Shown here piece by piece: positions 6,845 to 27,814 of a DNA stretch of 64,000 nt. The stretch lies in NCBI GenBank assembly GCA_043821365.1, contig JBDRCX010000006.1, forward strand, positions 519,417 through 583,416, given 5' to 3'. Origin of the DNA: Candidatus Micrarchaeota archaeon (lineage in GTDB: Archaea > Micrarchaeota > Micrarchaeia > Anstonellales > Bilamarchaeaceae). A program made the position numbers and the translations under genes. The notes under the pieces are model-generated. The model was not told where the DNA came from. It made no database searches and saw nothing but the letters and a program-made list of their open reading frames with translations. The stretch's first letter is position 1. Every line of letters starts with the position of its first letter.

Positions 6845-6942
6845 TATGCCACCATTCGTAGTCCATTGATCTCAAATATGTTTTAAATACTAAGGGACCG
6901 GTTGTTTAATATCTTCTTGTTTTATATTTCTTTGGTGATTAT

Positions 6943-7497
6943 TTGGACGTTTATTTTGCTACAAGTAATAAGCACAAAGTTGAAGAAGTAACAAAGATTC
7001 TAAAGGAATTTAAGATTACGGTGAAGCATTTCCCGTTTAATCACCGTGAGATTCGTTCAGATTCTTTGGAAGAGATATCTCGGGTGGCAACTGCTGCTGC
7101 ATATAAACAATGTCGTGAACCTGTGTTTGTTGAAGATACTGGTCTTTTCATCGAAGAATTAAACGGGTTTCCAGGTGCCTTTTCAGCATGGGCTTTAGAA
7201 AAAATAGGGTTGCAGGGCATATTAAAACTCATGGAAAACAAGACAAATCGCCATGCTTATTTTGAAACCTGTATTGGATTCAAAAGAGATGCAAGTCACA
7301 TTTCTATATTCACAGGGAAGTGTACTGGGAGAATTTCAACAGGAAAGCGTGGTAGTGGTGGGTTTGGATATGATTCTATCTTCATACCTGAAGGCGAGCA
7401 TCAGACGTTCGCTGAAAGCATAACCTTAAAAAACAAGCTATCACATAGATATAAATCTCTTTTAGAATTCTCTAAACTTTTAACTAGCAGAAGGTGA
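6943..7497 (+). CDS. Non-canonical purine NTP pyrophosphatase (HAM1/RdgB/ITPase family)
   Basis: FATSNKHKVEE...VEDTGLFIEELNGFPGAFSA...GGFGYDSIFIPEG...LSHR are family hallmarks. TTG start about 20 nt after a TTTTATATTT box. Confidence 0.85.
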   Translation: MDVYFATSNKHKVEEVTKILKEFKITVKHFPFNHREIRSDSLEEISRVATAAAYKQCREPVFVEDTGLFIEELNGFPGAFSAWALEKIGLQGILKLMENKTNRHAYFETCIGFKRDASHISIFTGKCTGRISTGKRGSGGFGYDSIFIPEGEHQTFAESITLKNKLSHRYKSLLEFSKLLTSRR

Positions 7498-12149: not shown

Positions 12150-12662
12150 ATGCCAACTGATCCATCTGATATTCTAAATGCTCATCAAAAGAAAAAAACA
12201 GATGCCATTGCATTTTTCAAAGAGCTTGCCCATATGAATTCTGGTCCAATCTCTCAAAATGTGATTAATATAGATAAAAATTCAAAATCACTTGCAGAAA
12301 CAAATTTATTATTTGAAAAAAAATTGTCTGAATTTTCAAAATCAAATATGGATAGTCTTGCTATCTCTAGATTCTGTCTGGCACTTTTTTTTATTGAACG
12401 TACTAATGAAATACATAATATTGTCTTAACTAAGAATGTGGGTGGGTTATACTCTTTATATACTTCTTTAAGAAACCAAGTTTGTGATTTATTAAATGAA
12501 AAGTATTATTCAGCTTCCAAAGATTATATTCTCTCTTTTTATCTTGATCTTGAACCTTTACTGTGTGCATCTTCTGACTTGTGCGAATTGCCTGTTCCTG
12601 AGATCACAACTATCATGGAAACTTACAAATCAAAAATTGCGGATAGACTTGAGAAACTCTGA
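12150..12662 (+). CDS. Hypothetical helical protein, paralog B of a tandem pair
   Basis: See paralog A. Its stop abuts the stop of the convergent 302-aa gene (TGATCA). Confidence 0.5.
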   Translation: MPTDPSDILNAHQKKKTDAIAFFKELAHMNSGPISQNVINIDKNSKSLAETNLLFEKKLSEFSKSNMDSLAISRFCLALFFIERTNEIHNIVLTKNVGGLYSLYTSLRNQVCDLLNEKYYSASKDYILSFYLDLEPLLCASSDLCELPVPEITTIMETYKSKIADRLEKL

Positions 12663-13571
12663 TCATCTCATGTTTCTAATCCCATTCCAACCAGGACTAA
12701 AATCTACTGGGTTTCCAATTTCTCTAGTGTGAAGCCCATTTCTTCCTATAACTCTCTCATAGAATTTCAATTCATGTGAATTACTATCCATATAGAAAAA
12801 TGGCGACCTCCCACTTCTAAAAGTAGAATAACCTGTGTTTATTCCATAATCCAAGCTTAACATTGCTTCAGGCATTAATCTTACTTCAACCCCAAGTCTT
12901 TCATATTTCTTAACTAACATCCTTTGTGTTAATACGTCAATGTCGGTCATGTCTGTTTTTTTATCATAATATTTTGGTTGTATAAGTAATATTGGTCTAC
13001 TACCATCATTCACTAAAAATAATCTTCTTCTAAATACAAAATCATCAGCACTGTCTTCTCTTGCAACTATCTGTTTTATCCATGGTAGTTCTATTGTGCC
13101 TACTACTCCGCCTATATGGAAAGTTGGTTGATGTGGTTCTTGGCAATTTGGATGTCCACGTACTAATCCACCATATAATGCAGTTTCAAAATCTCCAACT
13201 TCACCAACTAACAGATTGCCTATAGTGGCAGTTGTTTCTTGTCTCCATGCTACAAAAAGGGCTTCGCCTCTTTCTCTTCCCATCAAATTATGAAGTTCTC
13301 TACGGAACTCTTCTGAGAATTTGAATTCCTGAAATTTATGTGCTAAGTATGCAGAAAATGCATCATCAAGCACAGCTATTGCTTCTTGAAATGCCTCTTT
13401 TCTTCCTCTATAATCAATTCCAACATTTTTTGGGTCATTTAATTTTGTTAAATTTGCTCTTATTATACCAACGTCTGTAGTTATCCTATCAACCACTACC
13501 TCTCTCCGAGAAAATTTATCTTGTGTATGTGAAAATTGCACTAATCTTTTTGGAGGTTGTCGTCTATCCAT
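12663..13571 (-). CDS. Stand-alone homolog of the C-terminal module of the giant protein (function unknown)
   Basis: Collinear identity blocks with giant-protein residues approx 4189-4444: FQEFKFS-EFR, WRQ, YGG-VRG, TFHI-G-VGT-ELPWIKQIV, RRR-FL, PIL--QPKY, SGRSP--YMDSN, GLH-RE. Confidence 0.6.
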   Translation of the reverse strand: MDRRQPPKRLVQFSHTQDKFSRREVVVDRITTDVGIIRANLTKLNDPKNVGIDYRGRKEAFQEAIAVLDDAFSAYLAHKFQEFKFSEEFRRELHNLMGRERGEALFVAWRQETTATIGNLLVGEVGDFETALYGGLVRGHPNCQEPHQPTFHIGGVVGTIELPWIKQIVAREDSADDFVFRRRLFLVNDGSRPILLIQPKYYDKKTDMTDIDVLTQRMLVKKYERLGVEVRLMPEAMLSLDYGINTGYSTFRSGRSPFFYMDSNSHELKFYERVIGRNGLHTREIGNPVDFSPGWNGIRNMR

Positions 13572-13611
13572 ACTATTCTCTTGTTACGTAAAGTTTAATA
13601 ATCTACCACAA

Positions 13612-14148
13612 TTAGCCTACTGCTGTCCTATTCCTTCCACCAGTTCCATACTGTCTTCTTCCGATACTTGCCCTTAGACCTAAATCTGGTTTTTTGAGTA
13701 CTCCATTCTGTCTTACTAAAAGAATTGCTTGTGCTGAAAACTCTCTATCACTAATCATCTTCAGTAGCTGTATAGTTGTTTTATTAAGGGCAAAACCAGA
13801 ACTTGTTACTTTTGATAGTAGTTCTAAACCATATTTTGTAAGTTCCTTTTTTGTTTCTTTATGTCCAACCATCTCAAGTGCTCTTGTCAATAATACCTGT
13901 CCACTAACTTCTACGAATTTCATCCAGTAATCTGTTGATGGAAATTTGTCAAACATCTCACTGATTTTACTAAGTTCTGAGGTTGAGGTTTCGCCTTTTA
14001 CTACTGCCACAATTGTTTGGCCAATAATTGCAAGTTTTTTTACATTTTCATTATGATCTCTTGACAACACTTCAACAATTTTGTTTCCATCCACTTCTCC
14101 TGAGTACCATATTAAAGTGAAAAACATTGTTCTTGTATCATCATCCAT
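13612..14148 (-). CDS. Hypothetical protein immediately downstream of the giant gene
   Basis: 178-aa ORF starting 8 nt after the giant ORF stop, on the same strand. Helical, with a G/R-rich C-terminus (GRRQYGTGGRNRTAVG). Confidence 0.5.
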   Translation of the reverse strand: MDDDTRTMFFTLIWYSGEVDGNKIVEVLSRDHNENVKKLAIIGQTIVAVVKGETSTSELSKISEMFDKFPSTDYWMKFVEVSGQVLLTRALEMVGHKETKKELTKYGLELLSKVTSSGFALNKTTIQLLKMISDREFSAQAILLVRQNGVLKKPDLGLRASIGRRQYGTGGRNRTAVG

Positions 14149-14156
14149 AAAACCAC

Positions 14157-17100
14157 CTAATCCTTAATCAGTTCCCCTGTGATGTCACGCCTTTCGTTCC
14201 AGCCTTTTTGAAATATGTCTGGCTGTCTGTATCCCTCACTTGTACCTGGTTCTCTATAATGCAATCCATGGCGTGCAAAGACTATACCTTCTCTTCCTGC
14301 TCTAACTACATAACCATTACTATCCATATAATAATATGGCGATCTACCACTTGTGAATGTTCTATATCCTGCATTTGGACCAATGTCATTTGCATATGCG
14401 TGATCAATGTCTCTTACTCCTATTCCCATCTCTTCATATCTTGTGCGGATGCTTGCCATTACTGCAGTATCTATTTCTGCCAAGCCTGGCATATCCTTTG
14501 CTCCATATTTTGGTTGTGCAACTAATATTGGATTGCCGTCGTCTCCTTGCATGAGGAATATTCTTCTTCTGTATATTATTTCCCCTGCTGGATTTTTGAT
14601 CACAATCTGTTTTATCCATGGCAATTCTACTGTTCCAACTATTCCTGCAATGTGGAATGTCTGTTGTGATATATCTTGACAGGTGCGTTCTCCTCTAACT
14701 CGTCCGCCATAAAATCCATCTTCAAAACTTCCAGTTTCAAGTATAGTGTGGGTTGCATCTCCAACTGTTACTTGATCTGCAGTATGATTCTGTCTCCAAG
14801 TTTCAAATATTCTGCTTCCTCTTTCTTCCCCAACTAAACTAATTAATTCTCCTCTAAATTCGTCGCTAAACTTAAATTCTTGGAATCTTCCTTCTGCCAT
14901 TGCCCTAATTGCTTGATCAAAAACAATAGCAGCCTCTCCGAAACCTTCTTGTGGTCCATAATAGCCAACCAAGTTTTGTGTTGATCTTGGTGCAGCTTCC
15001 GTAAGATTACCACGATATTGTGTATAATCCATTATCAAATCAATATTTTCTAATATAAATGCAGCTGGAAGTTGGACATCAGAAGGTATGAACAATTTGC
15101 CAATTTCAGAACTAACTGTTTGTGTAAAAGCATCGATTGGAAGAACCCCACCATCGGGCCCAATGAGGTTTCTGCTTATCCTTGCAAGATCTGCGGGTGA
15201 TACCTTTCCATCTAAGTATGCATTGTATATAAGGTCCATATAATCTATCTTCCCTCTTGTTCTACTACTTCCTAAAAATTCTGCTTTATCTGCTTTTGTT
15301 GCTCCATCTCTTGCAATATATTCCAATTCTGCTCCTACTAATCTTAACCATGGTTCTACTGTTGTGTTCCCACTTGAATTGAAGATATTGTCCATTAAAT
15401 CTGCAACTTGTCTGAAATTTGCATGACTTCTTAGTTCCTTTCTTATAGCATCGCTACTCAATGCACGCAATACTAAACTTCTTGGAACTGGTCCAGTTTC
15501 AGGTAGTAAATATGTTGCAAAAGGAAGCCTATTTGGTCTTACACTTAGTTGGTCTGCTCTATCTGCAGTTATATCACCAAGAAGTATTGTTTCTTGCCTT
15601 GTTTTTCTCCCAACCTTAACATCAACTCTTATAGCAAGTGCTTCACTAAGAACCCCAAAATCTAAATTGTCTAAATTGCTTCCAATCAATTGCATATATG
15701 CTTCTCTTGATTCTGCAGTTGGAAGTCTACTAACATCATCAAATAGATATTCGAAAATATGTTTTACTACAGCTCCTCTTGCATCCGGATCTGTTATCTG
15801 ATCTAGTGGAATTCTATCGAGTAGTCTTCTGCTTGTTTCTGTTGCTTGCTCAAGCATTCTGAAACTATCAACATCAGTTGGCCTGAAATTATCAAGCAGT
15901 CCATTTCTAACTCCTGGTTTGACCTCATGTGAGAGCAGGGGTACTGGATCCACTCCAAGTAAATGAAGTTTTGCTGCAAATCCAAGAACATTACCAATTT
16001 GTCCTATAGTTATAAATCCTTCAACCTGCGCATAATGCAAATGTTCATCAAGTGCTGCAACTGTTCTTGAATATGCCTCAAGCATCTGCACTCTTGTTTC
16101 TTCTGGTGCTGTTCTTCTGATTGTTTTTGCACCTGCCATGACAGCATCCCTCATCATCTCAGGACTGCTGGAAAGAGATTGGTCAAGTGTGTCTAAAATG
16201 TGTGTTTCTTTTGCACTATTAACTTCTCTACTTATTTCTCCTTCGTAATATGTGCGTAATTCTGCAGGTGTCATTCCATCGTCAGCTATTCTGACCAAGA
16301 GTATATTCTCTACGCCATCATATTCAAAATTAAACTGAACATTCCCATCTTCTCTAATTACTGCTTCATATGTTACTCTGCTTGGAAGATCACTTTCTTC
16401 CATCCCTAATATTGATCTGCTTGGTGGTTTTGTTACATCTGGTCTTTTTACTACGACTTCTCTTCCTGCATAAACATCATCTGCTGCTTGAGAAATTGGA
16501 TTTCTTAATATTGTGGTTCTGTCTCTTCCATTTGTGAAATCAGTTGGCACATGTGAATCATCAGCAACACCAATCAAGTGGGGGCTATCTTCTGGTGCTC
16601 TGCTAGTATGGAGTCTTGCAGGGGCTGTTTTTCTAAGTGGATCTATTACAACAAATCCACTTCCTCTTCCATATGCCTCACTCATGCTTGCATCTAAATT
16701 GGTAACATATCCTCCAGCTGCCCTAACTCCTTTTCCTCTGGAATGGCCAACATAAATATGATCAACACCAAGTGCTTCTCTCCATTGAGCTGCAATCTCC
16801 TGGCTCATAATTGGTGCCCATCCATGCCTTCCTTCAACATATGCAGAAGAGTAATCTCCACTTTCCATAACTCGTATGTCTCCAAATACTGTTCCCCAAT
16901 GGTTATCTGCAGTAGTAAATAATCTTTGGAAATGTGCATCCAACATTTCAGGACTTGTAATTAACTGCCCATCACTTTGCAATACTGGTCCACCATGTGT
17001 GAAATAATTATTATCTATTATTACTGCTGCTCTTGACTGTTCAATGAAATGCATGAAACTTCCTTCTATTACTCTTCCTTGCTGATCATAATTTTCATGT

Positions 17101-20100
17101 ATGAAATTTTCCCAACTTCCATATCTTTCAATAATCGATTCAAATGTTTGGTCCACACCAACACGGCTCCACTGCTTCATGGCACCCATTATGTCATCTG
17201 CATTGGCCTTCCCTTCAAATACGGCTCTAACCTCTTGATCGCTTGAACCTCTATAAAATTCTACAAATCTTCTAAACAATTCTTCATGATTGCCTCTCAA
17301 TGCATGCACCCTAGTTCCTGTTTGCCCACCATCTGATTTCATCTGGCTTACTAATTCCACAACATCTACGCTTGTTGGTCCACGATCAATATAATCTCCC
17401 ATAAAAACAATCTGGCTTCCTTCTGGTAAATCTGGGTTTAGTCTATACCTCTTGGCAGGTGGAACATATCTTGGATCAGTTTTTGGCAATGTTCTTGGTA
17501 TCCCTTCCATAGTGTCAATTAAGATTCCTTGTCTAAGGAATTGGTCAACAACACCATAAACATCTCCATGCACATCACCAATTGCTATTACCTGACGTGC
17601 ATTTTGGATTACATCAACATAAGCACCTTGTTTCATGGTTGGTGGTGAACTTTCTATTGCTTCAAGGACTGTTCCATATCTATCTGCTATTGCAATTGCT
17701 TCATCTAAACTCCCAGTTCTAATTGCTTCTTGGTACGTTGCATCACTACCAAGTTGTTCAGCAAGCATTCTTTCGTTTGCAGTTCCTAATTTACTATCTT
17801 CAGCAATTAAATGAAGGCGGCGTCCTAATTTTGTACTTTCTGGTATCCTTTTTCCAAGTTGTTGTTCTTGTACTGCTAATTCTACTTCTCTTTCTTGTTG
17901 TCTAACTCTATACCTATATGCATGGTCTGGTTCACCAGTTCTTTTTTGTACTGGTGCTAATCTCGGTGCATCATCAACTATTGCAAGTGACATTCCGTCT
18001 GGTGATCTTGTTATTGCCTGGCGCCTTATTTCAAATGTTCTACCCTCGGTTAATACAAAGTCTTGAAATGCTTCAAGCATATCAGCTCCACGTGGTTCTG
18101 GTAATCTCCTAAGTTTAATTACAAGATCCTCTACTTTCCGTAATTGTGGATTTTTTCTTATTACTTCAGTAATGTCCCTAAGTTTACCAAGCCCTAATCT
18201 TGTTAATGTATCATCATTACCTATTGCCATTGCAGCAATAATCGCATCTGCACTATCATAATTTTCTGAACCCCACAACATCCTCAAGCGTCCATTTGAT
18301 ATTGATGCCATTGCATCTGCAAAGTTTGCGTTTTCAATTGGTACTGCTCCTTGTTTTTGTACACTCATTTTTACTCCTGCACTATGTAATTGTTCATCGA
18401 TAACTCTTGCCATCACAGTTGCATCAGCAGGTGTTCCGCCTTCAATCACATATTTCATTGTTCCTAAACGTCTTACTGTGACACCGTGTTCTGTTGCATA
18501 TCTTGCAACTGCAGCTTCTACAGTACTAACAAGGTAATTTGCACCATCATGGCCAAGGAATGTATTGAATCCACGCAAACCAAATGCATTTCTTTCTACT
18601 TCTGCATATCCTTTTCCTGTTATCTCTAAGTATGGTGTTTCAACTGTTCTTTCTACTCCTGGAAGTCTTCCTCCTATATCAACATAAGCTTGATTATCAT
18701 CTATTTGGAGCCTTACTTCAAATGCAGTTCCGCTAACTGTTTCTCCATCTCCAACCTGCCCTATTGATTCTGATAGTTTCCATCCAACTCCTGTTCTTAC
18801 CCCTAATCTTTCTCTAAGTGATGGTGCAAAACTCAAAGAACCATCTTCTTCTGCTCTAGTTATTAGCCCTTCTAAAAACCCTATTCTGCTTTCAGAACGC
18901 TGCAACATGGCATCGCTTCCATCAGCATGTACTGCAACTGCTCTTCCGTCTTCTGCTCTTCCAACTGTTACTGGTCTGCTAATATCATATGATGCTTCAA
19001 TTAATCTAAGTGGGTCTGTCATTAATGAAAGTGAATATCTTAATCTTCCAGAACCATCTGATGCCGTGCTAATTCTTTGGAATTCAGCATCAGTAACTGC
19101 TCTCATTTCTTGTCCTAGTCTTGTTCTAACGTCTTCTCCTTTTCCTTTTGGTACTATTATGATTCCTACTGCTTCATCCCCACCTCCACTTGGTGGGCGT
19201 ATTATGTGTGCAGTTTGTTCTTGACTATCCCCAATGATCCTTCTTACTGCTCCTTGTATTATGTCTTGATAAACTCCAAGAGCTTGATCCCCAACTTCTT
19301 CTCCAAACATTTTATTGATCTGACTTAGTGATTTTTTATCTGGTCGTATTACGATGACATCCATTTCTTGTCCTTGCATTGCGTCCGACAGAATCACATC
19401 TTCGATTGATCTAACCATTCTTCCAATTGAAACTTCTTCGCCAGCAACAGCTTCATGTCCAATCAACCATTCGGGTTGCCCTGTTCGTACTAACTCACCA
19501 TCAATCAACTCAACTCCTGCACGTCTGAGAACATGTCCAACTACATCATCAGTTTTGAAAAGTTCGCGACTAGGTCGCAATCTTACAAATTCACCTGCTT
19601 CAATTGATTCTGGTTCAACTACTGGTGCCCTAGTTTCTGGTTCAACTACTTTTGTTTCTGGTCCTCTTGTTCTACGTCCTTTGCTAATAGGAGTAGGTTC
19701 AATACCCTCTGCTCCAACAGCAATTGGCATCGCTGTTTCAGTAACTCTTGCTTGTGCACCTACTTTTCTTGGGTGCCCAACCATAAGTTTTATCACAATT
19801 GTTGGGCTCCCTTCTATATCTTGAGATACTGCAAAACATCTTGCTTTTGCTTCTGGTGTATCTGGTATCTCACCACGTATGGCTGCTTGATCAACAAGAT
19901 CTTCAAATTTTATTTCTGCTACTGGTCTTCCTGTTCTTTTTGATGCTTCTAAAACAATTTCTGATGTTTCAAAGCCAGCCATTCTTCGTAATGCTTTCAA
20001 ATTCTTTCCTGGTTTTGTTGGGCTGAGTTCTCCTCTTTGTATCCCACTGCCCATTGCTATTTTTGCTTCTTCAAATAATGTGAATTCACCTTCATATTTT

Positions 20101-23100
20101 CTTACCAAATGAGCAGGTCTTCCTGAAACTAGTGAGTAAGTATCTTCAGATGTTGTTAATCTTCTTACTAATGAATGTATTGCAGTTCTTCCTGCTTGTC
20201 CTTCTTGAGTTGCACCAAACAATCCAATTCTTAGTTCTCCTCTTGGTGTTCTGCTTGCAGTTGCAAATGCAACTATTCTTCCACCCTCTCTTGCTACAAA
20301 CCAAATTGGTGTTACTTCTGTAAATAATTTTTCAGGATTACTATAATGTAAGTCTGCAGCACCATAAGCTTCATCATAAAGTCTTTTTATCTCAGGCCAA
20401 GCTGCTGCTCGTTCTTGTTCAGTTATTTCAGACCATGGTCTTTTACCATCAACTTCAATATCAGTAATTGCTCTTTTTCTTTCAACAAATTCCTGGCTTT
20501 CATCATGCCTAACTGGTTCAAGTGTTCGTAATTTTGCAGCCAATTTTTCAGTTCCTTGCTCAATTCTTGTTGCAAATTCCTCTAGTTGTTTTGCTCTTGC
20601 TGTTTCTCCTGCCTCGCGTAAAACCTTTGCTTCACCTCTGAATCTACTTACATTTGCTTTTCTTCTTGTTATAGTTTCTCTTAGATTCTCTACTGTTACT
20701 GGTCTTTCTAGTAATCGTTGTTCTTCAGACATTGCCCTTATTACTATAGCTTCTGGTTGCCTTGCTATTTCTGGTATTTTCATTGCTGCATCAAGACCAA
20801 ATTCCAACTGTCTTGCTCTGCTTTTTCGATTAGCTAAATATTCAGGATTTAATGCAAGTTCCATTGCATGCCTCTGAACTTTTTCAGGTTGCCCTCTAAG
20901 TGCTTCTGCCACAAATGCTCTTTTTTGTTCTGGGGGCAATGAAGCAAATTCTGGATTATTAAGAATTCTCTCTGCACTACTTACAATTCTCAGTGCAGTA
21001 TCAACATGTTCAGAAGAATAAGTTTTTTGTTCTTCTCCTCTCCCTAATCTATATGTTGTTCCATCTTCACCGGGTTCTATGAATCTACTTTTTAATTGTG
21101 CATGCAAAACTTGTTCTGCTGCTCTTTCACGACGTTCCCGCATTTCTGTTGTTCTATCTACAGGGGCATCTTGTTCTGCATCGTGGGGATGTCCTCCTGG
21201 TATCTCAGCTTCTGGAGGATTAAGGAAATATACTTCGGCTTCTGCCAAAAATTTCTCAGTTGCTGCAGCACCTAGTGGTCTAAATTCAGTTCTTCCGCCA
21301 ACTTTTCTTGTTGGTATTCTATCCATGAATACCAATCCTTCTTCTGGTGTAAGACTTCTTCCTAATCGCAATTCCATCTGGCCATACAAAGTTTTTTGTG
21401 TCTCACCAAGTTGGCCGAATCTTTTTCCATGTTGGGCTCTTAGTGCGGTTGTCTCTGCAAGGCTCATTGTATGAACGGTTTCTCCAGTCAGGCCAGTCAT
21501 CACTCCTCTGAAAATTTTTGCTCCTCTTGTGTCTTGGGATGTTCCAGCAACTCTCCATGCTCTTGCAGTTCTTGTTGGTGCAACATGCGCTCCAACTGGT
21601 GCTGTTGCTTGTACTACACCAAGTACACCAGTTGTAAAGAATTCTAATCCACCTATATCTCCATGTATCCATGCTTTTCCAGATTCATAGGCTCCATAAC
21701 CTGCCATTCCAAGGCCGCCTGCCATTAGCCCCCCACCAAGGACGGTGATTCCTCTCCCACCAGTTCCCATCATACTACTAAACATTGTCACTCTGCCAAC
21801 TGCAAGAGATTCATTTGCAATTCCACTTAAACTACCAAGTGCTGCACCACCAAAACCCAAAACAACTCCACCTACTCCAAGTACTTGTTCTGCTGTACCC
21901 ATCTGCGAAAATCCACCTGATCTTCGGCTATTTTCTGCTAGATCATGAAGTGCCTTTGTTCCAAATCCAACACCAACAACTGCTCCAAAACCAGTTGCAG
22001 TAAGTCCTAGTGCAAGAGTAAGTTCAACTCCTGCCTGTATCCCTCTTGCAGTACTTTCAGAACTCTGGCCTTCTTTTAAAAGGCGGCCATAGTCTGTATC
22101 ATATTGTCCTGCAAAATCTGATGTTTCTGCATACAATCCTTGAATGTATTCATCAGTAGCTGGTTTTCCACCTTGTAATCTATTCTGCAAAACTCCATTT
22201 ATAACTTCTAAATCATGATCTGCATAAGTAGCTACAACATCATACATTTGTTTTCTTTCACTATATGACCAAATTGTTGTAAGTCCAAGATGAACTCCGA
22301 AATAATCGCCAAGCAATTGGCTTATACCTTTTATGTCTTTTGTCCCTGTTGCATGCGCAAGAACAACTTTGTGTTCTTCTGGTGTGAGGCGTACCTGGGT
22401 CCATCCATCATCTTCGTCCCAGGCTATTCCCATTTTTGCAAATGTTGCAGTTGTGTATAAGTCAGCTAATTTTATTGGTTCGCGATGTGCTGCAAGAGCA
22501 AACCTGTCTCCTTCAACATGTTTAAATCCAACAGAATATGTTTGTAGCGAATCTAGATATCCATGCATGGCAGCGTATAATGCATGTGGAATGTCATCAT
22601 AATCAGCACCGGCACTAATTTTAGCATCATCATAAACTCCGTCTCGGTCTCTTATCTTTACCTCTATTGCCGGTAGACTGACCTGCCCCCCGCTTAATAT
22701 TTTGCGTGTGATTCCTTCAGGATCAGATGCAGCTGCTCTTCCAATTTGGAGTAAGTCTGCTGCTCTCCATCTTAGATTCATGTTAAAAGGGCTGTAACCA
22801 TGGGTTCTTACGTACTGGTCAACATTATCAAATAGCATTATTGAATCTTCCAAACAACTCATGGCAAGTTGAGCACCAGCATTGAATTGATCCACTCGTG
22901 TACTAATTCTACTAAACTCAAGATCAGCTGTTAATTGTGCATGCAATCCGGGTCTTATCTGATCATGTTCTTGAAGATAAGCCAACCCCTTTCTCATTGG
23001 TGTGCCATCTTCTACCATTTCTTCATAAACTGCCTGGCCTCCTTTTTCTATTCTTCTTTGATTATATATCCTACCATTAAATCCATTTGTGGCTTGATAT

Positions 23101-26100
23101 ATCCCCCATATCAAATCCCTACTATATTCTGGTTTGAATGTATCTGCATATCCTTCTGTTAACATTACATCAATTGATGTTCCAAGCACTCTTGAGGTTT
23201 GTACTAAATCTTCTCTGACTTCTTTTGCATTTCCTGCAAGGGCTCTTGTTATTCCTGTGGCAAGTACAGCATCCAAAACTTGCTGGTGTGCTCCTATTGC
23301 TGCATAATCTATTTTTTCATCACCTTGTGGTATCTCTTGTGGTTTTCCAAATTCGCCTAAGTTGTGTTCAAGTCTTGTAAGTTCAACTTCTCGTTGTCTT
23401 AAGTATTCCATCTGACTAAGTCTTTGCATTCCTACCTGGTAGACTGAAGCAAAACTAGCAAAACGTTGATTGGTTTCATCGATTGTTCCGTCCAGTTCTC
23501 CTGAACCTACTCCTCCACGGCTTAGTTCTGCAATATCACCATCAATTAGATGAACAACCTCAGCAGTCTGAAGTCTTAAGTGATGAGCAGTATCAGATAA
23601 TTCACTTGCGTGATGGACTATTATTTCTCCTATTTCTCCCTCTTTCATCTCACCGTGTGTTCTTTCGATTTTATCTTCCATACTAGCTAATCTTCCTGCA
23701 TTCACTTCCAAACCAGTTTTTTGATACATTCTTCTAATCATTAACGGTTGGTTTGCTGTAAATTGATCTAGTTGTATTCTAACGTATTCAAGTTGTTGAT
23801 CTATTGATTCAGGTGTACTTGTTCCGTTCACCATTCTATCAATTTCATCATCAACTTTTCCTGCAGCTGCATCAAGCTCTGCTGCTAAAGTTGCCGCACC
23901 ACTTGCAATAATTTGCCGTGATTCTTGTGTTCTCTCTTTTGTTTCTGGTTCCATTCCCTTTCCTTCGGTGGTGTCTGCATATTGTTGCATTAATGCTTCT
24001 GCCTGTCTTTCAAATGATCCTCTTTCCAACAATAACATCTGTGATTGCTGTGCAAACTCAACTCTTTTTGGGAATGTTGCAAGTCTTAGTTCAACTTCCC
24101 TAAAGTTTCCTGTGGCCCTGGTCATATCAATGCTATAAACTTCTTCCATAAGGCCACGGTAATCAAATCCCACAACTACTGGTTCACCATCATTGCCAGT
24201 TTTTATCTCAGTTCTTAATACCTCTCCATCTCTTTGGCTGTCATCAGCCATATCAAATAACATTGCATGTTGCTGGTGAATGTCTACTTTTCTCTGATCT
24301 AATTGAATTCCAAAAACCGCACTTTTCAATGTTTTCTGAGCGTGTCCAAATCTTTCTCTTCTTGCATATCTTTTCGCAAGTTCAAGTTCTTGCATTCTTG
24401 CCTGTGTATCAAGTAAAGGAGTGCCTGCTTCTATTGTTGCACCAGCATGTTCTACAGTTGCTGCTAAGGTTATCGCACCCTCTTCTCTCCCGCTTCCATG
24501 TTGCTGGTCAAGTTCTCTAAGTCTTGCTTGTTCTGCTTCTATGCTTTTTACAAAACGTGCAACAGTATGCTGTATCTGTCTTTCTCTTCCAACTTTGGCC
24601 CCTCCTTCTAACATAGTATATGATGCACCTGCAATCATCCTACGTTGAGTGTCATCAAGTTCTGGCTCTTCAATTTTGGATAACTCAAGTAATATTTGTG
24701 CAGCTTCATCATACTCTTTTCTCCCTCGGTATCTGTGTATTGTTCTTATTGTTGTTATGCTTGAATGAAGTTGCAATAATGCCTGTTGGCCTTGTTGGGA
24801 AAGATAAATCATTCTCAATCCTTTTTGTTCTAAAACATCTGCTTCTGGTGTGCCTGCTTTCCTCATTGTTCTTGCTTGTTGGACTAGTTCAAGTCCCCTT
24901 GAATAACTGGTACTAAATCCTTCTGCCATTGTTGTTATCCTTTCGTAATCTATCCTCTCAGCTTCTTGGGTCTGTATATCTGCTTCCAGTATCCTTCCTG
25001 CTTTTTCAGCAACTGTGGCTTTCCTTTCGTGGTAACCACTTTGTGCTGTATAAGTAGCACCAATCCTTGTTTGTTGTGTTGGTGTTGTTCCAATTATTTT
25101 AGAACCAGTTCGCTGGAATTCAAGTAGCATTAATCGACTATCATGTTCCTGCTGTATACTTTCAAGTGAAGCAATTCGTTTTGTATCACCAACTGGCAGA
25201 AGTGCTACTAGTTTTTCATCTTCAGAAGAATTAATTGTATTTATGAAACTATTTCCACTGATCAAAGCAGTTCCTAATGGTCCAGATAGTGTTGTTGGTA
25301 CAAACCTTTGTGGATTTCCCTCTTCTAAAAGCATATCAAGTATCCGGTGGTCACCAAGTGCAGTACTACCCCTATAATCGCCAAGAACAGTCCTTACAAA
25401 TTCTGGTATTTCCTTCTCACCTGGCTGCTTTGCTGCTCTACAATAAAGATCAGCAAGATCTCTTACTCTTTCTGCCCCTTCAACATCCCCTCTTGCAAAC
25501 AAAACCTCTGCTGCATCATAGTATGCTTGTATGTTCCTTCGTACACTAGAGCTTGGTATCCCTTCCATTCCCTTTTGTTTTCTTAGTTCTGCCTCGAGTA
25601 TCCATCTGACTTTTTCTACAGGTAGACTTTCAATTTCCATTCTTGTTATCTCATCTGCTATGGTTGCTACATCTCTGTCATTTATTGGTCTCGAGCATGC
25701 ATTTGCTCCAAGGATATATACAAGAAATTCTTCTTGCGATTTATCCCCTTCTATTGCATCCTGTGCTCTATGTAAGATGTCTATTGTTCCGTAGAAGGCC
25801 AAATCTCTTGCTTTGCCTGTGATATCAGCTACGTTGCCAAGTGTTCTCAAGGAAGGGTCCAATGTATGGATTCCATCTCCGGCTACAAATGATGCAATCT
25901 GTTCTGGCTTTCCAAGGTAAAGTATTTGCATTCTTCCATACGCTGTTCTTTCTTTATCAGTTAATTCTTCACCATTTGCAATCTTTTCAAGTAACCTGTC
26001 CATATACTCTATCGGGCGACTGTACAAATCAGTAAGATCAATCTGTTTTTTCTGTCTTGCAGTTTCATGTAACTCAAGAATTGCAAGTTGTGTTTTGGTT

Positions 26101-27491
26101 ATCTCAATATAAACAGCAGTTTCCTGAACATGTTCACCTGCTGTTAGTGATATGCCATGAAGCTGTGCTCGTTTTTCTGGTGTTGTTAATTTATTGGCAT
26201 ATAATTGGCTAAGTTCAATTTGTATTTGCATCTGAGTACTATCACTAGAAGCCATGGCAGCAAAAATTCTCTCATGAATTCCGTTGAATTGTTCTAATTG
26301 TTCTGAACTCATGGATTGATAACTTTTCAAATAAGTTTCAACTATTTTTTGTAAACCGCTTGCAGTATATACCTGTTGCAATGTTGCTTCATCTGTTTTC
26401 AAACCAACTATTGCATCATGCAGTCCACCTACTGTTGGAATTTCTTGGCTTTCAATGTCTGCAATTAGATGATCTCTGATCTCATTTCTAACTGTTGCTT
26501 CATCTTTTCTACCAGTTACTAAGTCGTCGCTCCATGTTGCTAATTTTTTCCTAAATGCACTATCAGCAGTTTCATACTGAGCTAATATGTATTCATATAA
26601 TGCAAGCTCATCTTCTTTCAGTGTTCCTTGTTCAGCAAATTCTGTTCTCAATTCTTTAACTCTTACATACATTCCTTGGATAAAACTTGGTGGGGCATCA
26701 CGCATTCCTAAATCTTGTAGGTGCTCTATCATTCCGTCTATTCCGGCAAGCTTTTGTTGCTTTAGAATCCCAACACCATCTCTGAATCTTTGCATTACTT
26801 CTTGGAGTTCTTGATTATTTTCATCAGTAAATTCTTGTCCTGCATCTATCTGTCTCTTAAGAACTTGTGACACTTGGATGATACCCTGTCCAAGGCTACT
26901 TTGCGGTGTTATATACTGTTTATTAGAAATAAAAAATTCTGATAATTCTATCAATCCCTTAATCCTTTTTTCAGATAGGCCATAGTCTTGGAAAGATGCA
27001 CGCAATGCCTCAGTCAGTTCTTGTGGTGCATCGACAAGTCTTTTTTCAAGCGCTATTATAGTTACCAATCCAGTAAGTTTTGCTTCTGCTTCATCCATCA
27101 ATTCTCTTGATTTTTCTAGCTGTCCGGTTCTCATTTCCTGTATGCTTTTATCTGCTAAACTTCTAATGCGTGCAATCTCTGGCGTATACTTGGTTAATGA
27201 TTCACCATCTAATCTTTCGGATATCTGTCCATCCAATGCTCTACGTCTTTGTTCAACAGCTTCTACAGTTGGTAATGTTGATCCAAGTGCTCCTGCAGTT
27301 TCTGCAAGTTGAGTTCTAGCATGATCAGCAGCTGCAGTAGCTTCTCTTAATTCCCGTTCTGCTCTAGCACGTGGCCCTCTTCTCGGAGTTATGCTTGCCA
27401 GTCCACCTGCAACGTCTCGTACTTCCCCTACAACTCGGTCGGCCTGTCCTACAGCAAGTTCAACATCAGTTGGTCTAACCTGTTCAGCCAA
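14157..27491 (-). CDS. Giant multidomain protein (4,444 aa): helical N-terminal region, glycine-zipper hydrophobic segment, GGDEF-like palm domains, PPP-family phosphatase domain and a novel C-terminal module
   Basis: Uninterrupted 13,335-nt ORF in an AT-rich genome with a TTG start. Motifs read directly: GDVHGD / GDYIDRG / GNHE; GGGDE; G/A-rich hydrophobic repeats. Confidence 0.9.
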   Translation of the reverse strand: MAEQVRPTDVELAVGQADRVVGEVRDVAGGLASITPRRGPRARAERELREATAAADHARTQLAETAGALGSTLPTVEAVEQRRRALDGQISERLDGESLTKYTPEIARIRSLADKSIQEMRTGQLEKSRELMDEAEAKLTGLVTIIALEKRLVDAPQELTEALRASFQDYGLSEKRIKGLIELSEFFISNKQYITPQSSLGQGIIQVSQVLKRQIDAGQEFTDENNQELQEVMQRFRDGVGILKQQKLAGIDGMIEHLQDLGMRDAPPSFIQGMYVRVKELRTEFAEQGTLKEDELALYEYILAQYETADSAFRKKLATWSDDLVTGRKDEATVRNEIRDHLIADIESQEIPTVGGLHDAIVGLKTDEATLQQVYTASGLQKIVETYLKSYQSMSSEQLEQFNGIHERIFAAMASSDSTQMQIQIELSQLYANKLTTPEKRAQLHGISLTAGEHVQETAVYIEITKTQLAILELHETARQKKQIDLTDLYSRPIEYMDRLLEKIANGEELTDKERTAYGRMQILYLGKPEQIASFVAGDGIHTLDPSLRTLGNVADITGKARDLAFYGTIDILHRAQDAIEGDKSQEEFLVYILGANACSRPINDRDVATIADEITRMEIESLPVEKVRWILEAELRKQKGMEGIPSSSVRRNIQAYYDAAEVLFARGDVEGAERVRDLADLYCRAAKQPGEKEIPEFVRTVLGDYRGSTALGDHRILDMLLEEGNPQRFVPTTLSGPLGTALISGNSFINTINSSEDEKLVALLPVGDTKRIASLESIQQEHDSRLMLLEFQRTGSKIIGTTPTQQTRIGATYTAQSGYHERKATVAEKAGRILEADIQTQEAERIDYERITTMAEGFSTSYSRGLELVQQARTMRKAGTPEADVLEQKGLRMIYLSQQGQQALLQLHSSITTIRTIHRYRGRKEYDEAAQILLELSKIEEPELDDTQRRMIAGASYTMLEGGAKVGRERQIQHTVARFVKSIEAEQARLRELDQQHGSGREEGAITLAATVEHAGATIEAGTPLLDTQARMQELELAKRYARRERFGHAQKTLKSAVFGIQLDQRKVDIHQQHAMLFDMADDSQRDGEVLRTEIKTGNDGEPVVVGFDYRGLMEEVYSIDMTRATGNFREVELRLATFPKRVEFAQQSQMLLLERGSFERQAEALMQQYADTTEGKGMEPETKERTQESRQIIASGAATLAAELDAAAGKVDDEIDRMVNGTSTPESIDQQLEYVRIQLDQFTANQPLMIRRMYQKTGLEVNAGRLASMEDKIERTHGEMKEGEIGEIIVHHASELSDTAHHLRLQTAEVVHLIDGDIAELSRGGVGSGELDGTIDETNQRFASFASVYQVGMQRLSQMEYLRQREVELTRLEHNLGEFGKPQEIPQGDEKIDYAAIGAHQQVLDAVLATGITRALAGNAKEVREDLVQTSRVLGTSIDVMLTEGYADTFKPEYSRDLIWGIYQATNGFNGRIYNQRRIEKGGQAVYEEMVEDGTPMRKGLAYLQEHDQIRPGLHAQLTADLEFSRISTRVDQFNAGAQLAMSCLEDSIMLFDNVDQYVRTHGYSPFNMNLRWRAADLLQIGRAAASDPEGITRKILSGGQVSLPAIEVKIRDRDGVYDDAKISAGADYDDIPHALYAAMHGYLDSLQTYSVGFKHVEGDRFALAAHREPIKLADLYTTATFAKMGIAWDEDDGWTQVRLTPEEHKVVLAHATGTKDIKGISQLLGDYFGVHLGLTTIWSYSERKQMYDVVATYADHDLEVINGVLQNRLQGGKPATDEYIQGLYAETSDFAGQYDTDYGRLLKEGQSSESTARGIQAGVELTLALGLTATGFGAVVGVGFGTKALHDLAENSRRSGGFSQMGTAEQVLGVGGVVLGFGGAALGSLSGIANESLAVGRVTMFSSMMGTGGRGITVLGGGLMAGGLGMAGYGAYESGKAWIHGDIGGLEFFTTGVLGVVQATAPVGAHVAPTRTARAWRVAGTSQDTRGAKIFRGVMTGLTGETVHTMSLAETTALRAQHGKRFGQLGETQKTLYGQMELRLGRSLTPEEGLVFMDRIPTRKVGGRTEFRPLGAAATEKFLAEAEVYFLNPPEAEIPGGHPHDAEQDAPVDRTTEMRERRERAAEQVLHAQLKSRFIEPGEDGTTYRLGRGEEQKTYSSEHVDTALRIVSSAERILNNPEFASLPPEQKRAFVAEALRGQPEKVQRHAMELALNPEYLANRKSRARQLEFGLDAAMKIPEIARQPEAIVIRAMSEEQRLLERPVTVENLRETITRRKANVSRFRGEAKVLREAGETARAKQLEEFATRIEQGTEKLAAKLRTLEPVRHDESQEFVERKRAITDIEVDGKRPWSEITEQERAAAWPEIKRLYDEAYGAADLHYSNPEKLFTEVTPIWFVAREGGRIVAFATASRTPRGELRIGLFGATQEGQAGRTAIHSLVRRLTTSEDTYSLVSGRPAHLVRKYEGEFTLFEEAKIAMGSGIQRGELSPTKPGKNLKALRRMAGFETSEIVLEASKRTGRPVAEIKFEDLVDQAAIRGEIPDTPEAKARCFAVSQDIEGSPTIVIKLMVGHPRKVGAQARVTETAMPIAVGAEGIEPTPISKGRRTRGPETKVVEPETRAPVVEPESIEAGEFVRLRPSRELFKTDDVVGHVLRRAGVELIDGELVRTGQPEWLIGHEAVAGEEVSIGRMVRSIEDVILSDAMQGQEMDVIVIRPDKKSLSQINKMFGEEVGDQALGVYQDIIQGAVRRIIGDSQEQTAHIIRPPSGGGDEAVGIIIVPKGKGEDVRTRLGQEMRAVTDAEFQRISTASDGSGRLRYSLSLMTDPLRLIEASYDISRPVTVGRAEDGRAVAVHADGSDAMLQRSESRIGFLEGLITRAEEDGSLSFAPSLRERLGVRTGVGWKLSESIGQVGDGETVSGTAFEVRLQIDDNQAYVDIGGRLPGVERTVETPYLEITGKGYAEVERNAFGLRGFNTFLGHDGANYLVSTVEAAVARYATEHGVTVRRLGTMKYVIEGGTPADATVMARVIDEQLHSAGVKMSVQKQGAVPIENANFADAMASISNGRLRMLWGSENYDSADAIIAAMAIGNDDTLTRLGLGKLRDITEVIRKNPQLRKVEDLVIKLRRLPEPRGADMLEAFQDFVLTEGRTFEIRRQAITRSPDGMSLAIVDDAPRLAPVQKRTGEPDHAYRYRVRQQEREVELAVQEQQLGKRIPESTKLGRRLHLIAEDSKLGTANERMLAEQLGSDATYQEAIRTGSLDEAIAIADRYGTVLEAIESSPPTMKQGAYVDVIQNARQVIAIGDVHGDVYGVVDQFLRQGILIDTMEGIPRTLPKTDPRYVPPAKRYRLNPDLPEGSQIVFMGDYIDRGPTSVDVVELVSQMKSDGGQTGTRVHALRGNHEELFRRFVEFYRGSSDQEVRAVFEGKANADDIMGAMKQWSRVGVDQTFESIIERYGSWENFIHENYDQQGRVIEGSFMHFIEQSRAAVIIDNNYFTHGGPVLQSDGQLITSPEMLDAHFQRLFTTADNHWGTVFGDIRVMESGDYSSAYVEGRHGWAPIMSQEIAAQWREALGVDHIYVGHSRGKGVRAAGGYVTNLDASMSEAYGRGSGFVVIDPLRKTAPARLHTSRAPEDSPHLIGVADDSHVPTDFTNGRDRTTILRNPISQAADDVYAGREVVVKRPDVTKPPSRSILGMEESDLPSRVTYEAVIREDGNVQFNFEYDGVENILLVRIADDGMTPAELRTYYEGEISREVNSAKETHILDTLDQSLSSSPEMMRDAVMAGAKTIRRTAPEETRVQMLEAYSRTVAALDEHLHYAQVEGFITIGQIGNVLGFAAKLHLLGVDPVPLLSHEVKPGVRNGLLDNFRPTDVDSFRMLEQATETSRRLLDRIPLDQITDPDARGAVVKHIFEYLFDDVSRLPTAESREAYMQLIGSNLDNLDFGVLSEALAIRVDVKVGRKTRQETILLGDITADRADQLSVRPNRLPFATYLLPETGPVPRSLVLRALSSDAIRKELRSHANFRQVADLMDNIFNSSGNTTVEPWLRLVGAELEYIARDGATKADKAEFLGSSRTRGKIDYMDLIYNAYLDGKVSPADLARISRNLIGPDGGVLPIDAFTQTVSSEIGKLFIPSDVQLPAAFILENIDLIMDYTQYRGNLTEAAPRSTQNLVGYYGPQEGFGEAAIVFDQAIRAMAEGRFQEFKFSDEFRGELISLVGEERGSRIFETWRQNHTADQVTVGDATHTILETGSFEDGFYGGRVRGERTCQDISQQTFHIAGIVGTVELPWIKQIVIKNPAGEIIYRRRIFLMQGDDGNPILVAQPKYGAKDMPGLAEIDTAVMASIRTRYEEMGIGVRDIDHAYANDIGPNAGYRTFTSGRSPYYYMDSNGYVVRAGREGIVFARHGLHYREPGTSEGYRQPDIFQKGWNERRDITGELIKD
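16650..17600 (-). other. PPP-family (calcineurin-like) Ser/Thr phosphatase or ApaH-like metallophosphatase domain inside the giant ORF
   Basis: IAIGDVHGD (17562-17579), MGDYIDRG (17379-17399), RGNHE (17283-17294), downstream THGG and VGHS. Confidence 0.8.
19000..19380 (-). other. GGDEF-like nucleotidyl-cyclase palm domain inside the giant ORF
   Basis: MDVIVIRPDKKSLSQINKMFGEEVGDQAL...IRPPSGGGDEAVGIIIV is collinear with the GGDEF pattern (D-x-D-x-FK-x-iND-x-GH-x-GD ... GGDEF). GGGDE lies at 19173-19187. Confidence 0.55.
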
Positions 27492-27499
27492 ATCTTCAC

Positions 27500-27814
27500 C
27501 TAATTTTTCGTATAACAGATATTTACAAATTCCTGCAGCATATTAATGCGTTCGTTGTAATCTCGTCTTCTATTTTTTGTAATTAAAACTTTCTTTTCCC
27601 ATTCACTCAAAGCAGTGTGTAATTTTTTGTACCCCGTAAATTTTGGTTCAAGGTCTTTTGGTCTTGTTTTTGCATTATCCCATTTTGCAATTGCATCTTC
27701 AAGTACAGAAATAGTGTTATTGACTTTTTCAATAACCTTCTTTTCAACAAGATCTATGTTTGATTCATTGACTGGTTGACCAAATTCAAAATCTTTATTC
27801 TTGTTGTTATCCAT
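27500..27814 (-). CDS. Hypothetical small helical protein, first gene of the giant-protein operon
   Basis: 104-aa ORF whose stop lies 8 nt upstream of the giant ORF start. An ATATATAAAAAT box sits about 35 nt upstream on the minus strand. Confidence 0.5.
   Translation of the reverse strand: MDNNKNKDFEFGQPVNESNIDLVEKKVIEKVNNTISVLEDAIAKWDNAKTRPKDLEPKFTGYKKLHTALSEWEKKVLITKNRRRDYNERINMLQEFVNICYTKN

Follow-up and report, generated by a model that had tools for sequence, protein, structure and literature searches.

MARTX toxins of Vibrio and its relatives are single polypeptides of ~3,500-5,200 amino acids (aa) in which conserved ends flank interchangeable central effectors, nucleotidyl cyclases among them, that act in the cytoplasm of the target cell (PMC5218395, PMC6315884). 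Polymorphic toxin loci are laid out as toxin, immunity gene and cassette (PMC3482391). The SPEARE-type giants of Nanohaloarchaeota have a Sec signal peptide, Ig-like, beta-propeller and adhesion ectodomains and a VirB4/TraG-like ATPase (PMC10266531). Micrarchaeota are host-dependent episymbionts (PMC5498576, PMC8975820). Little is understood of how DPANN archaea control or exploit their hosts, and hardly any molecular effectors have been described; the locus described here is a concrete, conserved candidate. It is a four-gene operon of Candidatus Micrarchaeota archaeon with a gene for a 4,444-aa protein (hereafter, the giant), located in a 64,000-nucleotide (nt) stretch of contig JBDRCX010000006.1 (assembly GCA_043821365.1, positions 519,417 to 583,416 of the forward strand) that we call the window. 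The three smaller products of the operon, p104, p178 and p302, are named after their lengths, and related proteins and loci are referred to by P and L numbers.

We propose, with slightly less than even confidence, that the giant is a MARTX-like array of effectors that inserts into a membrane and works inside another cell's cytoplasm. It is homologous to no described system. Its recognisable enzymes use cytoplasmic substrates and would therefore have to act in a cytoplasm, and the shuffling of cassettes, the selection against lysine and the host-dependent lifestyle together point to that of another cell. Cassette exchange and lysine avoidance would be hallmarks of proteins of inter-organism conflict or manipulation. 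In the mechanism that we envisage, the N-terminal region and a glycine-zipper block would anchor in, or insert into, a membrane at cell-cell contact, and the enzyme array would reprogramme the partner cell's nucleotide signalling, phosphorylation and acylation. Its substrates would be phospho-substrates and, if the GGDEF-like and GNAT-like assignments discussed below hold, nucleoside triphosphates and acyl-CoA. p104 and p178, being as rich in lysine as the rest of the proteome, are proposed to stay in the producer, where they would serve as chaperone/adaptor or protective partners. The giant gene takes up 13.3 kb of a contig of ~0.8 Mb, which implies strong selection and which we count in favour of this proposal.

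To delimit the family to which the giant belongs, 1.84 billion representative proteins were searched exhaustively with HMMER, giant aa 3778-4444 being the query. The search returned 38 representatives, including at least one false positive (certainly P0041). About 20 are giants of 2,917-7,252 aa in which the match is always at the extreme C-terminus; the non-giant members are stand-alone proteins of ~310 aa or fragments. A word-index homologue search with the C-terminal 758 aa yielded 8,000 word-sharing candidates, none of them significant, and never returned the giants. All named members come from Micrarchaeota or close DPANN relatives and are labelled 'hypothetical protein' or 'metallophosphoesterase'. 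In a scan of species-representative genomes, eight loci were found, in Micrarchaeota, 'ainarchaeum', Bilamarchaeum and unclassified DPANN-type metagenome-assembled genomes (MAGs). Three giants are encoded in the MAG DeMMO3_13: two in tandem operons that share a contig (L012), and the third on another contig (L016). No paper describing the family was found in a literature search, and the Laminin_G_3 architectures that dominate the archaeal proteins in a survey of huge proteins are unlike it (PMC11573180). The family is rare, unannotated and undescribed, and its scaffold is lineage-specific.

An initial annotation, made from the sequence of the window, had assigned the domain combination to no described system. 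The searches agree with it: Pfam, NCBIfam, PADLOC, PHROGs and PDB sequences led to the recognition of the phosphatase domain only. Metallophos was the single Pfam family recognised in the whole giant and also in 12 family members of <5,000 aa, NCBIfam gave weak phosphatase matches to the giant and nothing else, and PADLOC matched no defence system, apart from a weak NsnC match of p104 that was treated as noise. Kinase-like, HD and HExxH modules seen by eye in relatives were confirmed by no profile and are not used as evidence.

The plan of the family is one of conserved ends with an exchangeable array of predicted enzymes between them. Conservation within the family is highest in the C-terminal ~660 aa, which every giant has, either complete or in part. 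The C-terminal domain (~380 aa) is conserved in the giants compared, the detectable match being shorter in the most divergent ones, P0031, P0034, P0035 and P0036; in a PDB profile search its best match was an unrelated protein at E 0.034. At the other end, the E/Q/R/L/A-rich composition first noted for the N-terminal ~1,800 aa was confirmed, and aa 56-237 and 426-946 have weak colinear similarity by BLAST to P0009, P0010, P0018, P0021, P0022 and P0031. The N-terminus, MAEQVRPTDVELAVGQADR, contains no hydrophobic segment suggestive of a Sec-type signal. Internal repeats were considered for the N-terminal region and rejected, as none appeared by self-BLAST. The glycine-zipper hydrophobic block of the initial annotation is present at aa 1820-1971 by hydropathy, with Kyte-Doolittle peaks at aa 1821-1845 and 1867-1892 and further Gly-rich stretches read from the sequence; it has BLAST similarity to P0009, P0026, P0031, P0034 and P0010. 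In a scan, most giants with a complete N-terminus had a hydrophobic block some 1,370-2,900 aa away from it; none was found in P0018 or P0034.

The modules between the ends differ from giant to giant. By BLAST, the window giant shares its post-membrane module with three giants, its 265-aa module with four, its double-palm module with four and its phosphatase with seven. Its order is GNAT-like, palm, phosphatase; that of P0020 and P0023 is palm, phosphatase, GNAT-like, and that of P0036 is phosphatase, GNAT-like. Differences in order or number are found in P0020, P0023, P0028, P0036, P0014 and P0018, and some giants are devoid of all of these modules. A junction domain of ~65 aa, detected by an iterated hidden Markov model (HMM), occurs in 24 copies, 1-4 per protein, in 15 family proteins including the window giant. 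It precedes the conserved C-terminal region and, in relatives, also the phosphatase module, and it could be a linker or processing site that marks module boundaries. L003 holds, at 151-7068, a partial syntenic giant that is open to the contig end; a RelA/SpoT (alarmone synthetase-type) nucleotidyltransferase domain (aa 1261-1374, Pfam E 3e-16) stands there in place of the window modules.

Within the array, the PPP-type phosphatase named in the initial annotation is a solid assignment. Pfam Metallophos (PF00149) matches aa 3301-3462 above its gathering score (E 1e-8, 36.2 bits vs a cut-off of 21.5), and PHROG 246, the NinI/lambda Ser/Thr phosphatase family, matches at E 3e-12. The weak NCBIfam matches are to Pnkp, PrpE and ApaH-type proteins, and a PDB sequence search with the giant gave only PP2A/PPP-type matches, at E about 0.01. 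All five PPP motifs are found in the window giant (GDVHG at 3305, GDYIDRG at 3365, GNHE at 3400, HGG at 3498 and GH at 3581). They are kept in seven of the eight aligned giants; P0015 has GDSFDGD for GDxxDRG, and P0014 has HAG for HGG. The module is 37-53% identical to those of P0028, P0023, P0036, P0020, P0017 and P0014. To judge from these motifs, the enzyme is probably active.

The phosphatase also bears on a different explanation, namely that the giant is cargo of a mobile element or virus, such as a virion protein, tape-measure-like or injected, that an integrated element encodes. Its best viral match is the NinI/lambda phosphatase family, and a long region combined with hydrophobic Gly-rich segments and enzyme domains recalls phage tape-measure proteins. 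Against this, no other PHROG match was obtained in the operon or its four nearest flanking genes, no integrase, capsid or terminase gene is nearby, the same chromosomal neighbourhood is found in several genomes, and the G+C content at third codon positions (GC3) is host-like. We regard a viral or mobile origin as highly improbable.

Upstream of the phosphatase in the polypeptide, two GGDEF-like palms had been described. The evidence for them is sub-threshold; the motifs of palm 1 are kept, whereas the acidic loop of palm 2 is gone. Palm 1 (about aa 2689-2809) carries the motif D-x6-DK...N...GD...GGGDEA, and palm 2 (about aa 2919-3055) is followed by a helical tail. In an alignment of five sequences (A2), D80, D87, K88, N95, G103, D104, D141 and E142 are invariant, as is an R position. 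In the window, palm 1 reads DVIVIRPDKKSLSQINKMFGEEVGDQAL ... GGGDEA over aa 2711-2774 (D2711, D2718-K, N2726, GD2735 and GGGDEA2769). This invariant pattern is that of GGDEF domains in PleD-type cyclases. Palm 2 keeps FNTFLGHDGAN and reads RRLGTMKY where the acidic loop would be; it is probably degenerate and non-catalytic. In the L014 giant, Pfam GGDEF matches at E 1.2e-4 (22.4 bits vs a cut-off of 23.8). An AlphaFold2 (AF2) model of the palm module was of moderate confidence (pLDDT 70, pTM 0.52), and Foldseek searches with it gave no match below 1e-3, the E-values being 7e-3 or worse and the global TM-score low. Palm-domain proteins nevertheless dominated the Foldseek list, in which Cas10/Cmr2 ranked first and which also included reverse transcriptases/Abi polymerases and GGDEF domains (probability 0.96-0.98, TMt 0.27-0.50); with this pLDDT 70 model, the GGDEF domains had E >= 0.04. 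A PDB profile search with the module gave nothing usable. The support is convergent and sub-threshold, and a GGDEF-like nature of the pair is plausible.

Two further modules concern acyltransferase folds. The initial annotation had reported a weak GNAT-like stretch at aa 2350-2468. A conserved module is indeed present there, 29-39% identical to P0023, P0036, P0020 and P0018; its GNAT-like assignment has very weak support and is unproven. The duplication of the C-terminal module as the last gene of the operon, also reported initially, was confirmed, p302 being 44% identical to giant aa 4160-4437 over 281 aa (E 5e-64). The terminal module has as invariants C4271 (in CQDP), ELPWIKQ and SGRSPYYYMD. 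The invariant cysteine, in the motif CQ[DE]P, is C143 in p302; the giant contains 5 Cys in all. Neither the terminal module nor p302 has a sequence-level family match (Pfam, PDB profile). An AF2 model of p302, built from nine family sequences, reached pLDDT 80 and pTM 0.82, and the top 50 Foldseek matches to it in the PDB were all GNAT acetyltransferases (probability about 1.0, TMt about 0.5, ~130 columns, best E 7.5e-4). GNAT acetyltransferases also made up most of the matches bearing a name in the viral library of Foldseek. The terminal module and p302 are best described, from this model, as a divergent domain of predicted GNAT fold, and p302 would be a free copy of the module. In a neighbour-joining tree, the stand-alone ~310-aa proteins form one clade apart from the giant C-termini, which indicates one old duplication, retained since. 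A p302-type gene follows the giant in most loci; none was found in L007, L014 and L016.

The small flanking genes, which the initial annotation had grouped with the giant, are conserved with it in related genomes. Homologues of p104 (14% Lys) are located directly upstream of the giants in L007 (143 aa, 40% identity over 88 aa, E 2e-18) and L012 (117 aa, E 1e-15), so that one precedes the giant in all three loci with the upstream region available (these two and the window). W45 and P52 are invariant. p104 matched no Pfam or NCBIfam family beyond weak coiled-coil noise, and we consider it a candidate chaperone or adaptor. A p178 homologue stands directly after the giant in L001, L003, L006, L007, L008, L009, L011 and L012 (E 1e-10 to 1e-30), that is, in 8 of 10 relatives with the downstream region available; none was detected after the giants of L014 and L016. 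Designed helical-repeat proteins and PPR proteins are the only matches of the p178 profile (E 2e-9 to 1e-5). Homology to these was rejected, the matches being read as compositional and as a matter of fold class; they suggest a helical-repeat fold. p178 may be an adaptor, a regulator or an immunity protein; Pfam and PADLOC assign it to no immunity family. The order p104, giant, p178 and, where present, p302 is a conserved unit across independent assemblies.

This gene order can also be read as that of a contact-dependent competition toxin, in which the terminal GNAT-fold module would be the toxin directed against rival archaea, p178 its immunity protein and p302 a spare copy. A small conserved gene after the giant in 8 of 10 relatives, followed by a paralogue of the terminal module, does resemble the toxin, immunity and cassette succession of polymorphic toxin loci, and GNAT-fold toxins are known in bacterial toxin-antitoxin systems. 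However, the C-terminal tip is the most conserved part of these proteins and the variable region is internal, which is the reverse of polymorphic toxins. Moreover, the p302-type genes, each with a start codon of its own, belong to a single ancient clade and are not recent orphan cassettes; they are not followed by any p178-like gene, and neither PADLOC nor Pfam detects toxin, immunity or pre-toxin domains. We therefore consider a competition toxin quite unlikely.

The second property on which our proposal is built is amino-acid composition. The giant contains 3.6% Lys and 8.3% Arg, and its R/(K+R) of 0.70 is matched by p302 (0.68), which is likewise R-rich and K-poor; the other open reading frames (ORFs) of the window range from 0.13 to 0.62, most of them from 0.2 to 0.45. 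p104 (14.4% Lys) and p178 (9.0%) are rich in lysine, as is the rest of the proteome. Within the operon, lysine avoidance is specific to the giant and p302. The giant has a GC3 of 0.20, inside the 0.18-0.31 range of the genome, and its synonymous codon choice is largely genome-like, with a somewhat different Gly GGA/GGT ratio and Arg CGT share; an R-rich, K-poor protein with host-like codons, as initially described, is what these values give. The operon has a GC content of 0.38-0.41 vs roughly 0.34-0.37 in most flanking segments. Since GC3 is host-like, this excess stems from codon positions 1 and 2, i.e. from amino-acid content. Host-like GC3 and codon choice show that the bias is selected at the protein level, without a trace of foreign DNA. 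Horizontal transfer was considered as the source of the odd composition and rejected on the same grounds.

Lysine avoidance is far more pronounced in many relatives. About 12 of the ~20 giants are almost Lys-free, with 5-14 Lys in 2,980-6,948 aa and 9-13% Arg (Table 1). They reside in AT-rich, Lys-rich genomes, their GC3 is host-like, and their p104 and p178 partners are Lys-rich. At the P0026 locus (41% GC, GC3 0.24), for example, the giant lies between homologues of p104 and p178 whose Lys contents are 19.6% and 11.2%, respectively, and the genes beside it have 5-22% Lys, except one other Lys-free gene. A Lys-free and a Lys-normal giant in tandem on contig JAGVNI010000010.1 indicate that the bias is protein-specific. 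The Lys-free state is scattered over the family tree, which suggests repeated gain or loss.

Two of these loci have features of their own. L012 (JAGVNI010000010.1, 1-17139) comprises a Lys-free giant A, a p178-like, a p302-like and a p104-like gene (9837-10190) and a Lys-normal giant B (P0024/P0050). In L007, a gene at 20160-21788 (minus strand), convergent to the giant operon, encodes a 542-aa protein with 1 Lys and 10.9% Arg; this Lys-free protein resembles neither the giants nor anything encoded in the window and may be a co-functional partner or a second secreted factor.

Lysine depletion is known from the A chains of AB toxins and from 'lysine deserts', where it is read as an escape from Lys-directed conjugation and proteasomal degradation (PMC10665810, PMC10169902). 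Pathways of ubiquitin-like (Ubl) proteins and the proteasome exist in archaea (PMC4895103, PMC4569737). By analogy, the lysine avoidance of the giants might be an escape from Lys-directed modification, a prediction that can be tested; self-protection from the family's own acyltransferase-fold modules might be another cause. A bolder version, which we think doubtful, sees the giants as an archaeal effector-delivery platform, in which a self-inserting polypeptide would carry swappable enzymes into the host archaeon and would be Lys-free to escape SAMP/Urm1-type tagging for the proteasome. If true, this would give Archaea a first candidate for a translocated multi-effector toxin, and a first hint of an arms race between two archaea in which effectors are pitted against Ubl systems.

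Table 1. Coordinates of the operon genes and giant modules in the window, and size and lysine content of almost Lys-free giants
Feature	Extent	Nucleotide coordinates	Strand	Basis or remark
p104 ORF	104 aa	27814-27500	minus	first gene of operon
Giant ORF	4,444 aa	27491-14157	minus	TTG start
N-terminal region	aa 1-1815	22047..27491	minus	E/Q/R/L/A-rich composition
Glycine-zipper hydrophobic block	aa 1816-1971	21579..22046	minus	about four Gly-rich hydrophobic segments
Conserved post-membrane module	aa 2129-2320	20532..21107	minus	common to P0021 (E 4e-15), P0033 and P0010
~265-aa module, weak GNAT-like core	aa 2324-2590	19722..20522	minus	shared by 5 giants including that of the window, at differing positions
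Double-palm module	aa 2632-3164	18000..19598	minus	alignment A2, sub-threshold Pfam, AF2/Foldseek
PPP-type (lambda/NinI-like) metallophosphatase module	aa 3217-3690	16422..17843	minus	Pfam PF00149, PHROG
Junction domain, ~65 aa	aa 3692-3755	16227..16418	minus	iterated HMM
Conserved C-terminal domain	aa 3778-4160	15012..16160	minus	alignment A8
Terminal module	aa 4160-4444	14160..15014	minus	paralogue of p302; fold predicted from p302 AF2 model
p178 ORF	178 aa	14148-13612	minus	
p302 ORF	302 aa	13571-12663	minus	last gene of operon
P0026	4,507 aa	L007 6001-19524		5 Lys
P0031	5,122 aa			5 Lys
P0009	5,179 aa	L001/L010		8 Lys
P0034	4,191 aa			8 Lys
P0035	4,493 aa			8 Lys
P0036	4,755 aa	L006		8 Lys
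P0014	2,980 aa			8 Lys
P0023	6,948 aa			14 Lys

Several points weigh against an effector array that acts in another cell. In Pfam scans, neither the giant nor the window yielded an export signal, secretion machinery or an adhesion domain, and the roughly four hydrophobic segments would put both large parts of the protein on one side of the membrane, so that a protein of the producer's own cytoplasm fits equally well. The likeness of the giant to MARTX toxins is architectural, and its function is proposed by analogy. As to the modules, Pfam GGDEF (PF00990) is sub-threshold in three of five members, with a best E of 2.4e-4, and matches the window module with 16 bits (E 0.011). The 265-aa module matches Pfam Acetyltransf_1 at E 0.056 and, in a PDB profile search, NatA/Ard1 at E 1.4. 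The GNAT-fold call for the terminal module comes from a nine-sequence AF2 model and Foldseek E-values of ~1e-3; the module has no acetyl-CoA motif, the Q/R-x-x-G-x-G/A loop after beta-4 being replaced by an invariant QPxY. Finally, five giants (P0010, P0015, P0018, P0022 and P0024) have a normal Lys content, so that avoidance is not universal.

Some of these points would be accounted for by a self-directed signalling hub, anchored in the membrane of the producing cell with both arms in its cytoplasm and scaffolding second-messenger, phosphatase, kinase and acyltransferase activities for its own regulation. The missing signal peptide, the roughly even number of hydrophobic segments and the lack of secretion genes agree with such a hub, as do the syntenic position in the core genome and the host-like codon usage, and the modules (PPP, GGDEF-like and, in a relative, RelA/SpoT) are classic intracellular signalling enzymes. 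Yet a reshuffling of catalytic modules between close relatives is not usual for housekeeping regulators, and near-total avoidance of lysine beside Lys-rich partners would be left unexplained, save by self-protection from the protein's own acyltransferase modules. We hold a self-directed hub to be possible, if rather unlikely, and keep the effector array as our tentative proposal.

The locus itself has the features of a resident operon. The initial coordinates of four minus-strand ORFs separated by 8, 8 and 40 nt were reproduced exactly by the ORF list. The sequence TTAGGTG occurs at both 8-nt junctions (27492-27499 and 14149-14156), where a Shine-Dalgarno-like motif overlaps or embeds the upstream stop codon; this is the pattern expected of translationally coupled genes. 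The TTG start of the giant has GGTGA 5 nt upstream. An A/T-rich element, AATATATAAAAATAAG, lies ~40-50 nt 5' of the p104 ATG, within a divergent intergenic region of 110 nt, and we infer that it is an archaeal TATA box. At the other end, the stop of p302 (minus) abuts that of a convergent 170-aa ORF (12150-12662, plus) at 12662/12663; with 0 nt between the two stops, there is no room for a separate terminator.

The operon is accompanied by two sets of archaeal housekeeping genes. One includes RTC (RNA 3'-phosphate cyclase), a tRNA-editing domain protein, a GAN/DHH nuclease, an archaeal ProRS and an S-layer protein; the other includes LonB, DUF373, an exosome Rrp4-like protein, a PAC2 proteasome chaperone and tRNase Z. 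RTC is found near the operon in the window and in five other loci from four assemblies. The full run of NAC, S3Ae, S15, Ham1, RNAP subunit L, ECR1_N, DUF373 and LonB was seen in L003 and L005, and the window has RTC, ECR1_N, DUF373 and LonB. Because the same housekeeping neighbourhood recurs in related Micrarchaeota contigs, the locus is vertically inherited. It is a native, old part of the chromosome, neither an island nor a chimera.

These data also speak to the concern that the giant is an artefact, either an assembly chimera or a decayed gene read as one ORF. The source is a MAG, exact look-ups of the giant and p302 in a gene-position collection gave no independent assembly of this gene, and the junctions from module X to the GNAT-like module and on to the palms are unique to the window giant. 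p302 is identical to 'hypothetical protein ABH842_04975 [Candidatus Micrarchaeota archaeon]'. However, the chance of an open frame of 4,444 codons at the local base composition is P ~1e-140, the catalytic motifs are intact, and GC and GC3 are uniform along the giant gene, with a steady negative GC skew. Colinearity with giants from independent assemblies extends over the N-terminus, membrane block, palm, phosphatase and C-terminus, junctions included, so that no sign of a chimera, a risk considered from the start, was seen. An artefact has in our view only the slightest probability.

Other genes of the window were noted in passing. A 384-aa ORF (28460-29614, minus), just upstream of the operon's divergent neighbour, has no family match, a GC content of 0.67 at codon position 1 and 4.4% Lys. 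A Fic/DOC-domain protein of 305 aa (41385-42302, plus; Pfam E 2e-19), just after a 960-aa S-layer-like protein (38369-41251), is a possible AMPylating enzyme in a reduced genome. Two tandem large genes at 50861-56101 and 56094-61064 (plus), with an overlap of 8 nt, encode proteins of 1,746 and 1,656 aa that contain right-handed beta-helix repeats and very little Lys or Arg (about 1-2% of each); these are probably surface adhesin-like proteins unrelated to the giant.

The giants are the largest proteins in these tiny genomes, carry signalling enzymes that are probably active, evolve by cassette exchange and have dedicated partners. The family also provides new conserved domains for family databases, namely the ~380-aa C-terminal domain, the terminal module of predicted GNAT fold with its invariant cysteine, the 65-aa junction domain, p104 and p178.

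Compared with known systems, single modules and traits of the giants have separate counterparts. Palm 1 resembles GGDEF cyclases in keeping a D...D-K/N/GD/GGDE-type motif pattern, and a pair of one intact and one degenerate palm is reminiscent of Cas10 and of pseudo-heterodimeric cyclases; the difference from GGDEF cyclases and Cas10 lies in a Pfam score below the gathering cut-off and Foldseek E-values >= 7e-3. With the lysine-poor A chains of AB toxins and 'lysine deserts', the giants share a strong, protein-specific depletion of lysine with arginine kept. In the giants, however, the depletion covers whole proteins of about 3,000-7,000 aa, and in archaea; the window giant is only moderately depleted, and the tie to archaeal Ubl/SAMP proteins is hypothetical.

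As in MARTX toxins, an interchangeable array of modules stands between conserved ends, an analogy of architecture only. The giant has no sequence or domain homology to them, its host is an archaeon, and its membrane element is the internal glycine-zipper block. No glycine-rich RTX A/B/C repeats were found in it (Pfam, NCBIfam), nor any internal repeats by self-BLAST; no peptidase family that could represent the inositol-phosphate-activated, autoprocessing cysteine protease domain matched at E <= 0.1 (Pfam), and no type I secretion genes are adjacent among the Pfam-scanned neighbours. The dedicated partners p104 and p178 have no MARTX counterpart.

Polymorphic toxins, to which the initial annotation had likened the locus, show the same succession of a large protein, a small conserved gene and an extra copy of the terminal module (PMC3482391). 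The likeness stops at the C-terminus, which in the giants is conserved and not hypervariable, their variability being internal, contrary to what is seen in classical polymorphic toxins. The searches detected no domains of the trafficking, pre-toxin or immunity kinds, and the stand-alone copies are an old orthologous clade, not orphan cassettes. In type VII secretion systems, small helical partners are encoded upstream of LXG toxins, and p104 (~100 aa, upstream) recalls them.

A likeness to the host-interaction giants of DPANN archaea had also been suggested. The organism is indeed a DPANN archaeon, and, like SPEARE, the giant is a very large protein of a host-dependent archaeon that takes up a large share of a tiny genome and for which host interaction is proposed. 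None of the defining features of SPEARE is shared, however: the window giant has no Sec signal and no Ig-like, beta-propeller or adhesion Pfam domains, and no VirB4/P-loop match was obtained in it or in the Pfam-scanned neighbours. Instead, the Micrarchaeota family carries cytoplasm-type enzymes and shows lysine avoidance. What the family has in common with MARTX toxins, polymorphic toxins and SPEARE is, by analogy, a design principle only, and we place it among the giant modular multi-enzyme proteins of host-dependent prokaryotes, on a scaffold specific to its lineage.

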